Source: a virus (lineage: Duplodnaviria; Heunggongvirae; Uroviricota; Caudoviricetes). Taken from it: a stretch of DNA of 10,589 nucleotides. This document shows positions 3,422 through 4,751 of the stretch, one piece after another; positions within the stretch are counted from its first letter, which is position 1; every line of letters starts with the position of its first letter. A model generated the notes under the pieces. The model did not search any database, was not told where the DNA came from, and was given only the letters and a program-made list of their open reading frames with translations. Both the position numbers and the translations under genes were made by a program. Where the stretch lies: the IMG/VR virus record IMGVR_UViG_2609459825_000010. One strand, written 5' to 3'.

Positions 3422-3700
3422 ATGGCGCACGATACCAAATTACACAATTCTGATGATTCTGCCGTCTTTGCCAGCAGGCACGGGCGGCGTTCCCGCACTT
3501 TCAAATCTGACTGGTTCCAGCATCCCCCATGCACTGAAGAACAGGCCGAGTGGCTAATTCAGTGCTACCGCAGACACGGATACGAGATTAAGAAAGCCCT
3601 CAGCCTCGATTATCGTCACTGGATAATCTCCGTCAGGCTTCCTTACTCCGAACGCTCACCGCGTCCGTCCCGCACATTCCAGCAACGCATCTGGAGGTAA
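3422..3700 (+). CDS. Hypothetical protein (92 aa), possibly rem-like
   Basis: ORF-track ORF 3293-3700 begins inside the hok terminator, so the start is placed at ATG 3422 (MAHDTKLHNSDDSAVF...). Weak RBS. Sits between hok and the DUF968-like gene, the position rem occupies in the K-12 Qin prophage (from memory). Confidence 0.45.
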   Translation: MAHDTKLHNSDDSAVFASRHGRRSRTFKSDWFQHPPCTEEQAEWLIQCYRRHGYEIKKALSLDYRHWIISVRLPYSERSPRPSRTFQQRIWR

Positions 3701-3701
3701 C

Positions 3702-4751
3702 GTGCGAGTATTACTTCGACCTGTTCTGGTACCGGAACTCGGGCTGGTGATCGTTAAGCCGGGCCGTGAATCCATGCCGGTATTCCACAATACCCGGGTA
3801 CTGGTGGAGCCGGAACCGAAAAGCATGCGTAATCTGCCGTCCGGGGTCGTTCCTGCCGTTCGCCAGCCGCTGGTGGAAGACAAAACATTGCTGCCGTTTT
3901 TCAGTAACGCACGGGTGATTCGTGCTGCTGGTGGTGCTGGTGCATTGTCTGACTGGCTGTTGCGCCATATTAAATCCTGCCAGTGGCCACACGGCGATTA
4001 TCATCACAGCGAAACCGTCATTCACCGTTATGGTACCGGCGCAATGGTGTTGTGCTGGCACTGCGACAACCAGTTGCGTGACCAGACCTCCGAATCACTT
4101 GAGCAACTTGCTCACCAAAACTTGTCAGCATGGATGATTGACGTCATTCGTCACGCAATGAATGGCACACAGGAGCGGGAATTATCGCTGGCTGAATTAT
4201 CCTGGTGGGCGGTCCGCAATCAGGTGGCGGACGCGCTACCGGAAGCGGTATTACGTCGTTCGCTGGGGTTGCGTGCGGAAAAAATCCGCTCAATGTACCG
4301 TGAAAGCGACATCGTACCGGGAGAGCAGACCGCCACCAGCATACTGAAACAGCGCACAAAAAATCTTGCGCCGCTGCCTCACGCCCACCAGCAACAGAAC
4401 CCACCACAGGAAAAGACGGTGGTCAGCATTGCCGTTGATCCTGAGTCTCCGGAATCTTTCATGAAACGACCTAAACGTCGCCGCTGGGTTAACGAGAAAT
4501 ACACACGCTGGGTGAAGACACAGCCGTGTGCGTGTTGTGGTAAGCCAGCCGACGATCCCCATCACCTGATTGGTCATGGTCAGGGCGGAATGGGGACAAA
4601 ATCTCACGATATTTTCACGCTACCGCTGTGTCGGGAGCATCACAACGAGCTTCATGCGGATCCTCTGGCGTTCGAAGAAAAGCATGGTTCTCAGGTTGAT
4701 TTAATTTTTCGTTTTCTTGATCACGCCTTTGCAACTGGCGTGCTTGGGTAA
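3702..4751 (+). CDS. DUF968-like prophage protein (YdfU-like) with C-terminal Cys/His-rich HNH-like motif
   Basis: 349-aa ORF, GTG start with GGAGG upstream. C-terminus ...KTQPCACCGKPADDPHHLIGHGQGGMGTKSHDIFTLPLCREHHNELH... is a Cys/His metal-binding, HNH-like signature. Placement upstream of rusA and Q is typical of nin-region genes. Confidence 0.7.
   Translation: MRVLLRPVLVPELGLVIVKPGRESMPVFHNTRVLVEPEPKSMRNLPSGVVPAVRQPLVEDKTLLPFFSNARVIRAAGGAGALSDWLLRHIKSCQWPHGDYHHSETVIHRYGTGAMVLCWHCDNQLRDQTSESLEQLAHQNLSAWMIDVIRHAMNGTQERELSLAELSWWAVRNQVADALPEAVLRRSLGLRAEKIRSMYRESDIVPGEQTATSILKQRTKNLAPLPHAHQQQNPPQEKTVVSIAVDPESPESFMKRPKRRRWVNEKYTRWVKTQPCACCGKPADDPHHLIGHGQGGMGTKSHDIFTLPLCREHHNELHADPLAFEEKHGSQVDLIFRFLDHAFATGVLG

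Follow-up and report, generated by a model that had tools for sequence, protein, structure and literature searches.

Several phage proteins have been described that can be compared with YdfU of Escherichia coli K-12 (b1560, Qin prophage). For example, Ref of phage P1 and Gp16 of the Staphylococcus phage PhiNM1 have been proved experimentally to be RecA-linked nickases (PMC3973344, PMC12817073). In the case of Gp16, overexpression halts host growth and replication, and this toxicity is relieved only in part in catalytic-histidine mutants (PMC12817073). Another example is Rap/NinG of lambda, a branch-specific endonuclease, which has been placed in group 24 of the His-Me finger proteins (PMC5714182). 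In the same classification, DUF968/YdfU belongs to "group 7" as a predicted nuclease with RusA, Q and antirepressor as neighbours (Jablonska et al., 2017, PMC5714182), and the function of the YbcO protein is likewise predicted only (PMC4999995). In fact, both the HNH/His-Me assignment of DUF968/YdfU and a recombination role beside RusA were published between 2014 and 2017 (PMC4118853, PMC4999995, PMC5714182). YdfU itself counts among the uncharacterised "y-genes" of K-12, and no biochemical or genetic study of it was found in the searchable literature. The earlier note on the sequence studied here held that proteins of this kind have no established function, which is in line with the 2024 y-ome list (PMC11551758). 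That statement needs to be qualified, however, since the nuclease assignment and the recombination idea had already been published and characterised relatives exist in P1 Ref and PhiNM1 Gp16 (PMC12817073).

The window, that is, the whole stretch of 10,589 nt that was analysed, carries a YdfU-type DUF968 gene at 3702..4751 on the plus strand, with a GTG start and a product of 349 aa. This product is 86% identical to K-12 YdfU over all residues with no gaps, and its exact sequence is already public under the name "DUF968 domain-containing protein". It is the ordinary and very common YdfU/DUF968 gene product of E. coli lambda-like prophages: the 3-kb region is matched in 4788 of 5426 complete E. 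coli genomes, and the RefSeq annotation of a 98.3%-identical strain gives identical ORFs with identical boundaries. Upstream lie a sok RNA (2929-3104) and hokD (a PF01848 match), followed by a candidate terminator found by sequence scan (3323..3350, plus strand), a G+C hairpin with its stem at 3323-3340 and then TTGTTTTTTC, with a T-run. The hok/sok transcript probably ends at this terminator-like hairpin. Between the hairpin and the DUF968 gene lies a small ORF of 92 aa ("orf92", 3422..3700, plus strand; stop codon TAA at 3698-3700). A putative Shine-Dalgarno sequence, GGAGG (3693..3697, plus strand), would serve the GTG start of ydfU and, because it lies within the final codons of that ORF, it suggests that both genes are translationally coupled. 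Downstream, rusA (4764..5138, plus strand; PF05866, E 2.9e-17; PHROG 34, E 6.8e-55), a member of the Holliday-junction resolvase family, starts 12 nt past the ydfU stop codon, exactly the immediate proximity that the earlier note had reported. The antiterminator gene Q (5135..5956, plus strand; PF03589, E 4.6e-51, plus a DnaJ-type CxxCxGxG motif) closes this early "nin-like" block, in which the small ORF and ydfU are 1 nt apart, ydfU and rusA 12 nt apart, and rusA and Q overlap by 4 nt (ATGA). If the lambda nin region is a guide, transcription of the block probably yields a delayed-early message; an internal promoter scan of the region gave 2 promoter-like sites against 2.8 expected, which is not significant.

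Membership of the DUF968 family, suspected in the earlier note, was borne out by an HMM search, in which PF06147 matched residues 160-346 along the whole model (1-171 of 171) with E 4.3e-77 and 258.4 bits, the cut-off being 27.8. The PHROG 96 family, "HNH endonuclease", spans the full 349-aa protein (E 5e-177). The AlphaFold2 model, built on an alignment of 30 homologues, has a mean pLDDT of 86.8 and superseded a single-sequence model (pLDDT 44.9), which was set aside. Three parts can be told apart, all on the plus strand: an N-terminal domain (residues 1-160, 3702..4181), a middle region (residues 161-245, 4182..4436) and a C-terminal nuclease domain (residues 246-349, 4437..4748). The gene is under purifying selection, with a dN/dS of 0.11 as a whole, 0.16 in the middle region and 0.059 in the C-terminal domain, its most constrained part. 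In the alignment the middle region shows two conserved helices (LSxxELxWWAV...LP) and then a variable linker, where pLDDT is as low as 46-68 at residues 191-240. The C-terminal domain consists of a basic lead-in, FMKRPKRRRW, in which K258 is invariant, followed by the HNH core and two trailing helices. Apparent fusions of the N-terminal part of YdfU to tail fibre, J, portal, capsid or Q proteins were also considered as functional clues and dismissed as chimeras left by deletions in decaying prophages, since the partners are internal late-gene fragments; the one fusion contig inspected has a normal early region running into the junction.

The HNH/His-Me finger core occupies residues 276-318 (4527..4655, plus strand). 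The C-terminal Cys/His motif to which attention had been drawn is present (PCACCGKPADDPHHLIGHGQGG...LPLCREHHNELH, residues 275-318), although it does not end the protein, as 31 residues lie beyond it. It is a genuine zinc-finger/HNH signature, kept across 123 homologues of 26-97% identity. At the proposed zinc site, C276 is found in 123/123 of them, C279 in 102/123, C310 in 107/123 and His or Cys at position 313 in 101/123, about 20 homologues having lost part of the site. In and beside the proposed active site, D303 is conserved in all 123, H288 in 121, and H287, H314 and H318 in 120 each. The AlphaFold2 model shows a high-confidence beta-beta-alpha element, made of strands 285-288 and 306-309 and helix 311-319 (pLDDT 94-97). 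Thus, the absence of an HNH fold and of conserved Cys/His residues, on which the earlier note would have given up its proposal, was seen on neither count. By analogy with other enzymes of this type, C276, C279, C310 and H313 are proposed as zinc ligands, H288 as the general base, D303 as the residue in the "N" position, and H314 and H318 as metal ligands; H288 aligns with H157 of Gp16 and with the single His of YbcO. With a predicted beta-beta-alpha core, a general-base His, the Asp and His of the H-N-H pattern and a CxxC...CxxC/H zinc site, the last ~100 residues are, as judged from sequence and model, an intact HNH (His-Me finger) nuclease module that is predicted to be catalytic. Structural searches with Foldseek matched ~110-aa DUF968/HNH phage proteins in BFVD (E 2.6e-7, TM 0.76), and the best PDB matches were HNH domains (Cas5-HNH, IscB, Cap5 and Gme HNH) at E 0.7-4, which is not significant; the YbcO and Ref structures, 3g27 and 3plw, are not listed among these PDB matches. 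Sequence and profile matches to C2H2 zinc fingers in the PDB (E~1-2) were discarded as spurious.

Gene order gives a context for this module. RusA lies within 3-4 kb of ydfU in 68/80 close, 4/16 distant viral and 49/80 species-representative loci (121/176 overall), so that the adjacency is not universal, and it directly adjoins ydfU even in homologues of ~30% identity. At distant RusA loci, a YbcO-, DUF968- or Ref-type HNH gene was found upstream in 8/15, six of them abutting rusA. The linkage to RusA could, on the other hand, reflect mosaic gene order instead of joint function. NinG, NinB, YbcO and YbcN were found in 0/176 YdfU loci (tblastn with single lambda or DLP12 queries, E<=1e-4); NinG and YdfU therefore appear to be mutually exclusive, and the data are consistent with YdfU filling the slot held elsewhere by Rap/NinG or YbcO. 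Our preferred reading, to which in its full mechanistic form we give a probability of about one half, is that YdfU is a delayed-early phage nickase or endonuclease which, together with RusA, acts on intermediates of recombination or replication. According to it, H288 would activate a water molecule, H314 and H318 would position a divalent metal ion at the phosphate to be cleaved, and C276, C279, C310 and H313 would hold a structural zinc. The enzyme would nick or cut D-loops, branched DNA and similar intermediates, perhaps with RecA or a phage recombinase as its guide, as in the case of P1 Ref and PhiNM1 Gp16, and its cutting would either feed into the resolution of junctions by RusA or complement it, thereby promoting phage DNA replication and recombination.

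The gene immediately upstream of ydfU also deserves attention. The small ORF had been called "rem-like", a label that is wrong: its product gives no BLASTP alignment to K-12 Rem (b1561) even at E<=100, and a comparison of its family profile with Rem by hhalign yields a probability of 0.2%. From the gene arrangements, rem is a separate and optional upstream gene. The rem insert of ~420 bp that separates hokD from the small ORF in K-12 is missing from the window, and rem and the small ORF are adjacent as separate genes in about 26/80 related loci, as also happens in phage HannyBb. The 92-aa product matches instead PHROG 1212 (E 4.5e-35), a widespread family of small nin-region proteins, with a 66-aa core at residues 27-92 (nt 3500-3697) corresponding to model 1-66 of 66. 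Homology to lambda NinD/E/F/H, DLP12 NinE/YlcG or Rem was rejected (hhalign probability <1%). The gene is a hypothetical protein in RefSeq, its exact sequence is present on at least 1000 contigs, and its dN/dS is 0.21 (39 distinct alleles); K-12 carries an unannotated copy.

An alternative that we regard as unlikely is that YdfU is a host-directed toxic nuclease, involved in shut-off, exclusion or conflict, and that the small upstream protein is its inhibitor or immunity partner, in the manner of an antitoxin-toxin pair. Such a pairing is suggested by the same 1-nt gap between the small ORF and ydfU in 79/79 close loci. Beyond the close set, the small-ORF family lies directly 5' of a nuclease of the NinG, YbcO or DUF968 type in 78/80 loci, which makes about 157/159 loci in which phrog_1212 directly precedes a His-Me nuclease gene (NinG, YbcO-type or YdfU-type); NinG is preceded by this family in 53/80 loci. 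The host arrest caused by Gp16 overexpression (PMC12817073) fits a toxic role too, as does the very strong Rho-dependent terminator upstream of K-12 ydfU, which is assigned to the terminators that keep toxic prophage genes silent (PMC9160355). Nevertheless, neither protein has a counterpart among the PADLOC defence models (0 families for YdfU or the small ORF at E<=0.01). Nor is the small protein an obligate partner of YdfU, as it is missing beside homologues of 45-56% identity, where the place before ydfU is taken by genes for an antirepressor, KilA-N, RusA, a methylase or others, and lambda has no homologue of it in the hhalign comparison. To our knowledge, lambda Rap/NinG functions with no partner of this type. 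Toxicity of this kind would, moreover, overlap with a nickase acting in recombination and does not exclude it.

A second Cys/His site was found in the N-terminal domain. It comprises C93 (codon 3978-3980), H101 (4002-4004), C118 (4053-4055) and C121 (4062-4064), and among the 123 homologues C93 and C118 are conserved in all, His or Cys occupies position 101 in 122, Cys or His position 121 in 123, and D122 is kept in 118. In the AlphaFold2 model this stretch forms a beta-hairpin (105-118) and then a helix (119-125), with pLDDT 90-95, and we infer that the site probably binds zinc. Residues 1-160 gave no match in Pfam, NCBIfam, PADLOC, PDB or Foldseek; whole-model Foldseek matches of the N-terminal and middle domains to HORMA/Mad2 and other proteins (probability 0.01-0.04) were taken as noise. 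An Orf/NinB-like domain has been claimed for Gram-positive "DUF968" proteins but could not be detected here, the YdfU family profile giving a probability of 0.15% against lambda NinB by hhalign, a weak test in that the template is a single sequence. Within the protein, the N- and C-terminal domains align collinearly with an hhalign score of 20.8, reached by 2/150 column shuffles, and have the same order of elements (helix, knuckle, hairpin, helix, helix). A more far-reaching version of the nickase reading has three components: that YdfU is a tandem His-Me/treble-clef protein with an N-module that is a degenerate copy of the C-terminal HNH; that a recombinase-guided nickase and RusA drive recombination-dependent phage replication; and that the phrog_1212 protein is a dedicated partner common to the NinG, YbcO-type and YdfU-type nucleases, which look unrelated to one another. 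In such a protein, the N-module, with C93, H/C101, C118, C/H121 and D122-N123, may recognise a DNA structure or a partner. We consider it rather unlikely that all three components hold together.

The most constant neighbour of ydfU is Q, immediately downstream in 69/89 diverse loci. This observation could be explained if YdfU were a non-catalytic DNA-binding or regulatory protein, its HNH/zinc-finger module only binding DNA and the protein acting with Q, or just before it, in the switch to late transcription. One group-7 member is indeed annotated as "phage transcriptional regulator" (PMC5714182), and two divergent homologues (P0222 and P0246) persist after losing the HH pair. Adjacency to Q is, however, expected of any last nin-type gene, and the general-base and metal-ligand histidines are retained in 120-121/123 homologues within the domain of lowest dN/dS; since the relatives Ref and Gp16 also cleave DNA, a purely regulatory role seems quite improbable. 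Many phage HNH genes are homing endonucleases, and the plain label "HNH endonuclease" given by phage annotators would suit a free-standing selfish gene that spreads by cutting phage genomes devoid of it. Against this, ydfU keeps a constant slot, from replication/antirepressor genes to Q, in Enterobacterales homologues of 45-97% identity and in relatives of ~30%, purifying selection covers all 349 aa with the large non-nuclease N-terminal domain included, and no conserved host gene was seen interrupted, all of which makes homing very improbable. Finally, a terminase-associated role in cos cleavage and packaging, like that of HK97 gp74, is suggested by the HNH proteins that help terminases in many cos phages (PMC12817073), but it is hardly tenable for an early-region gene that precedes Q and is remote from the terminase genes, the more so as a 98%-identical prophage has a separate small HNH gene (locus L001, 15831-16181) directly before its P27-type small terminase subunit.

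If YdfU is a nickase of the Ref/Gp16 type working with RusA, a function would be gained for a very common prophage gene, and another player for lambdoid recombination and replication. In that case, the nuclease might, like P1 Ref, also affect SOS-linked antibiotic lethality. As regards the nuclease domain, nothing is added here beyond the databases and three papers. What is new is modest: the correction of the rem label, the constant pairing of phrog_1212 with His-Me nucleases, the unannotated copy of the small gene in K-12 and the second Cys/His site in the N-terminal domain of YdfU.

The closest known system is K-12 YdfU, which likewise has hokD and the small ORF upstream and the Q antiterminator gene downstream; the window differs in having rusA between ydfU and Q and in lacking the rem insert. 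Lambda Rap/NinG (PF05766) shares the nin-region slot just upstream of Q. Homology between NinG and YdfU was rejected, as there is no Pfam match and the hhalign probability of 6.5% is confined to the PCxxCG...H stretch, so their likeness would be one of functional analogy only. Other relatives were linked by hhalign, as profile against single sequence over 55-113 columns and largely driven by the metal-binding motifs: YbcO (probability 84.5%, E 6.9e-6, YdfU 274-348 with YbcO 17-94), P1 Ref (78%, E 1.7e-5, 55 columns) and PhiNM1 Gp16 (94%, E 1.1e-7, 113 columns). YbcO (DLP12 and phage 82; PF07102, formerly DUF1364; PDB 3g27), the sole relevant PDB sequence from the family-profile search (E=1), is also encoded directly upstream of rusA. 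Unlike YdfU, however, it is a 96-aa nuclease module alone, with neither N-terminal nor middle domains, and it has a single His for HH and Asp for H318; YdfU has no PF07102 match in Pfam at E<=0.1. Ref (RecA_dep_nuc, PF16786; PDB 3plw) shows the same PCxxC...HHI.G...LPLCR.HH pattern, and both proteins have a basic segment before the HNH core. Ref differs in its disordered basic N-terminus, its long helical finger, its lack of a large N-terminal domain and its location outside a nin/RusA context, and YdfU does not match PF16786 in Pfam. Gp16 (HNHc_6, PF16784) is above threshold with the DUF968 HMM (29.1 bits), whereas YdfU reaches 22.5 bits with HNHc_6 (cut-off 26.6) over residues 271-319 only. 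Gp16 is shorter (223 aa), comes from a different host and phage lineage and has a NinB-like N-domain; because YdfU lacks this domain, dependence on RecA is not simply transferable from one to the other. Both are early phage genes, in Gp16 with rusA about 3 kb downstream, and they share an identical C-R-E-H-H-N-E-x-H motif. In fact, the HNH core of YdfU matches the residues mutated in Gp16 one by one: C145, C148, H157, C181, H184, H185 and H189 of Gp16 correspond to C276, C279, H288, C310, H313, H314 and H318 of YdfU.

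The 349-aa protein encoded by the YdfU-type gene (3702-4751, plus strand, GTG start) matches Pfam DUF968 (E 4.3e-77) and PHROG 96 'HNH endonuclease' (E 5e-177), both far beyond chance, and K-12 YdfU aligns with it gaplessly at 86% identity. An earlier note on this DNA is right about the coordinates, the length, the Cys/His motif (residues 275-318) and the gene's place immediately 5' of rusA, and the gene is a real, correctly placed, ordinary and extremely common prophage gene. Around ydfU, a 3-kb stretch shares 98.3% identity with E. coli EC21Z-151, for which RefSeq gives ORFs identical in extent to those called here, and 4788 of the 5426 complete E. 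coli genomes contain a match to it; the exact 349-aa sequence is public on 395 contigs as 'DUF968 domain-containing protein', and that of the 92-aa ORF preceding it on at least 1000 contigs as 'hypothetical protein'. Many public database 'proteins' consist of the N-terminal 150-270 residues of a YdfU homologue followed by an internal piece of a portal, capsid, tail-fibre, tip-attachment J or Q protein (P0125, P0143, P0153, P0154, P0169, P0188, P0190, P0191 and P0245; locus L185, 4894-6642). These look less like genuine domain architectures than like assembly chimeras or deletion junctions in decaying prophages.

The nuclease-fold assignment and the likely recombination role of YdfU are already published. 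For example, a zinc-finger HNH motif has been described in DUF968, together with fusions to Erf, Rad52 and RusA (Curtis et al., 2014; PMC4118853), a nuclease function has been predicted for YbcO/DUF1364, which was tied to Ref and HNHc_6 (Kaur and Subramanian, 2016; PMC4999995), and DUF968 and DUF1364 have been placed in His-Me finger group 7, with YdfU named (Jablonska et al., 2017). In a 2024 y-ome paper, YdfU and Rem were still uncharacterised (PMC11551758). To examine the C-terminal domain (residues 246-349; 4437-4748), the protein was modelled from a first alignment of 30 full-length homologues (24-84% identity), and conservation was counted over 123 non-identical homologues (26-97% identity). 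K258, C276 and D303 are kept in all 123, H288 in 121, H287, H314 and H318 in 120 each, C310 in 107 and C279 in 102, while position 313 is His or Cys in 101. The AlphaFold2 model (mean pLDDT 86.8) places strands at 285-288 and 306-309 and a helix at 311-319 (pLDDT 94-97), a predicted beta-beta-alpha core with a long inter-strand loop. Foldseek against PDB gave weak E-values (0.7-4), the top matches being HNH domains (Cas5-HNH, IscB, CBASS Cap5 and the Gme HNH nickase), and in BFVD the model matches DUF968/HNH phage proteins of ~110 aa (E 2.6e-7, TM 0.76). Among 61 distinct alleles of the E. coli group, the gene as a whole has a dN/dS of 0.11, and its C-terminal domain one of 0.059. The HNH-like Cys/His signature proposed earlier therefore stands, because the fold is predicted and the residues are conserved, and the C-terminal domain is, as modelled, an intact HNH/His-Me finger. 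In the 30-sequence alignment A1, two divergent homologues of full length (P0222 and P0246) have lost the HH pair and the H314/H318 histidines; both still have the Cys/His site of the N-terminal part and the usual overall length, and may be catalytically dead derivatives.

Residues 1-160 (3702-4181) have no match in Pfam, NCBIfam, PADLOC, PDB or Foldseek. This region holds a second fully conserved Cys/His set, in which C93 and C118 are present in 123/123 homologues, position 101 is His or Cys in 122/123 and position 121 is Cys or His in 123/123, followed directly by D122 (118/123) and N123 (100/123). In the model, C118 and C121 lie where the beta-hairpin 105-118 meets the helix 119-125, which is how a treble-clef zinc site is laid out. 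Profile-profile comparison of the N- and C-domains yields a 94-column collinear alignment (hhalign score 20.8) in which C93 falls opposite C276, DYHH opposite DPHH and LCWHCDN opposite LCREHHN, and the trailing helices also correspond; 2 of 150 column-shuffled controls (mean 11.9, sd 2.8) scored as high, and the predicted secondary-structure elements come in the same order in both modules. This hints, at the level of sequence profiles, that the N-terminal module may be a degenerate internal duplication of the HNH module, a relationship that is not established. If it is a copy, it would be non-catalytic, since residue 102, the general-base equivalent, is His in only 57/123 homologues. Two conserved helices (residues 161-190) and a variable, low-confidence linker (residues 191-245) lead to the C-terminal domain.

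The 92-aa ORF (3422-3700, plus strand) had been called 'rem-like', a label that is wrong and should be dropped. BLASTP against K-12 Rem (83 aa) yields no alignment; DNA alignment equates window 3405-4751 with the unannotated 346-nt rem-ydfU gap of K-12 plus ydfU, and rem, which comes after hok/sok in K-12, sits there on an insert of ~420 bp missing from the window. Rem is optional (about 26 of 80 closely related viral loci), and the 92-aa ORF is found in 79/79 close loci having upstream sequence, its end always 1 nt before the ydfU start. Its dN/dS of 0.21 indicates purifying selection. In K-12 MG1655, an intact homologous ORF of 92 codons (76% identity), which carries no annotation in NC_000913.3 (locus L002), lies at about 1644306-1644584 on the complement, between rem (b1561) and ydfU (b1560), and also ends 1 nt before ydfU; published work puts a very strong Rho-dependent terminator 'upstream of ydfU' in this area (PMC9160355). 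The 66-aa core (residues 27-92) is PHROG 1212, with copies at L265 2501-2701 and L266 2561-2761, and the family occurs in lambdoid phages of Escherichia, Salmonella, Klebsiella, Yersinia, Edwardsiella, Erwinia, Hafnia and Cronobacter. In mEp237 it is flanked by a NinB/Orf-like gene and, on the other side, a YbcO-type HNH gene and then rusA; in Gifsy-2 its neighbours are a NinB-like gene and ninG. Across 80 viral loci with the core (L268-L347), the upstream gene is always NinB/Orf-like, and the downstream gene (start within 450 nt) is NinG in 53, YbcO-like in 12, DUF968-C-like in 5 and nothing recognisable in 2; RusA scores best in 8 more, where a YbcO-like gene probably intervenes, as in mEp237. 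With the 79/79 YdfU loci added, the small protein is seen to be encoded directly 5' of His-Me-finger nucleases from three Pfam families. Lambda NinD/E/F/H, DLP12 NinE/YlcG and Rem are not related to it, and it is not an obligate partner of YdfU, because it is absent beside YdfU homologues of 45-56% identity. A second allele, only 34% identical, occupies the same position in L033, L058, L059, L061-L064 and L076, beside YdfU proteins that are 89-93% identical; exchange of the small gene is independent of ydfU.

The order in the 80 close loci is hokD, (rem), small ORF, ydfU, and then rusA (68/80; 4764-5138, plus strand, in the window) or the antiterminator gene Q (here 5135-5956, plus strand). 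In a diverse set of 89 loci, from species-representative Enterobacterales genomes (45-97% identity) and distant viral loci, the next gene downstream of ydfU encodes a Q antiterminator belonging to one of three Pfam types in 69, DUF1133 in 15 and RusA in 5, and the next gene upstream is an ANT/Rha antirepressor (28 loci), RusA (13), KilA-N (11), DUF4406 (6) or a methylase. Across the three sets of loci, RusA lies within 3-4 kb of flanking sequence in 68/80, 4/16 and 49/80, and NinG, NinB, NinH, YbcN, YbcO and NinE in 0/176 YdfU loci. In two relatives of ~30% identity (L085 and L097), rusA overlaps or abuts ydfU; at L099 the downstream ORF is a sub-threshold DUF1064/endonuclease-I-like one. A RusA-first survey covered distant RusA loci of 43-51% identity (L247-L264); among the 15 whose upstream sequence runs to 2 kb or more, 8 have a YbcO-, DUF968-C- or Ref-type HNH gene, which abuts rusA in 6; at L263 a Ref-like gene lies beside a NinB-like gene. 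Since the pairing of such an HNH gene with rusA is seen in YdfU loci, in the ~30%-identity relatives and in distant RusA loci, it is recurrent and not peculiar to this prophage; this is an association and does not prove that the two act together.

The window comes from a lambdoid E. coli prophage and represents its early-to-late junction. An IS-type transposase fragment (310-747, minus strand, HTH_Tnp_1) is separated from hok/sok by three consecutive ORFs of 320, 130 and 114 aa (1085-2807, plus strand) with no match in Pfam or PADLOC; the 98%-identical strain carries two unrelated hypothetical proteins at this position. A complete hok/sok type I toxin-antitoxin locus (2929-3254), with the sok RNA (2929-3104, plus strand, 112 bits) and hokD (3099-3254, plus strand, PF01848), lies directly upstream of the small ORF/ydfU block, and a terminator-like hairpin follows (3323-3350, plus strand). 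The content of 6096-10566 is typical of the cargo that separates Q from the lysis genes: a 94-aa ORF that hits nothing in Pfam and, on the plus strand, an AraC-family ORF (6514-7227), tRNA-Met(CAT), tRNA-Arg(TCG) and tRNA-Arg(TCT) (7256-7505), a TerB-domain ORF (7604-8107), the STnc100 sRNA (8343-8552, 146 bits) and a 610-aa protein with DUF1737, SASA sialate-esterase and DUF6645 domains (8734-10566).

In the best-supported reading, YdfU would be a delayed-early, zinc-stabilised HNH nickase or endonuclease of recombination or replication intermediates, which RecA or a phage recombinase may direct and which would act upstream of, or alongside, RusA; we give this mechanism a probability of about 0.5. 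What the analysis shows is the predicted fold, the conservation of the active site and the synteny, whereas activity, substrate, a part for RecA and the timing of expression are inferred. Alternatively, YdfU might be a host-directed toxin and the small ORF its inhibitor. This explanation overlaps the recombination-nickase reading, because Gp16 of Staphylococcus phage PhiNM1 does both: a 2026 study describes an early nickase that interacts with RecA, stops host replication and is required for efficient phage DNA replication (PMC12817073). That YdfU is an HNH-fold protein whose active site is functional is very probable. A non-catalytic DNA binder, a homing endonuclease and a terminase helper are unlikely alternatives, in falling order. 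The points worth keeping are the pairing of the small ORF with a nuclease, the ORF that lacks annotation in K-12, the second Cys/His site and the closely matching motif of the newly characterised Gp16.

Among known systems, neither lambda NinG/Rap nor NinB/Orf is significantly similar to the YdfU-type protein. The sole PDB sequence match of the family profile is DLP12 YbcO (3g27, E=1), which hhalign aligns over residues 274-348 with a probability of 84.5% (E 6.9e-6); phage P1 Ref, a RecA-dependent HNH endonuclease, is matched at 78% (E 1.7e-5), and Gp16 at 94% (E 1.1e-7). The Gp16 gene (L184, 4052-4720) encodes a protein that matches Pfam HNHc_6 (E 4.9e-117) and also scores above the DUF968 threshold. 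Its mutated residues C148, C181, H184, H157, H185 and H189 (PMC12817073) correspond one-to-one to C279, C310, H313, H288, H314 and H318 of the YdfU-type protein.
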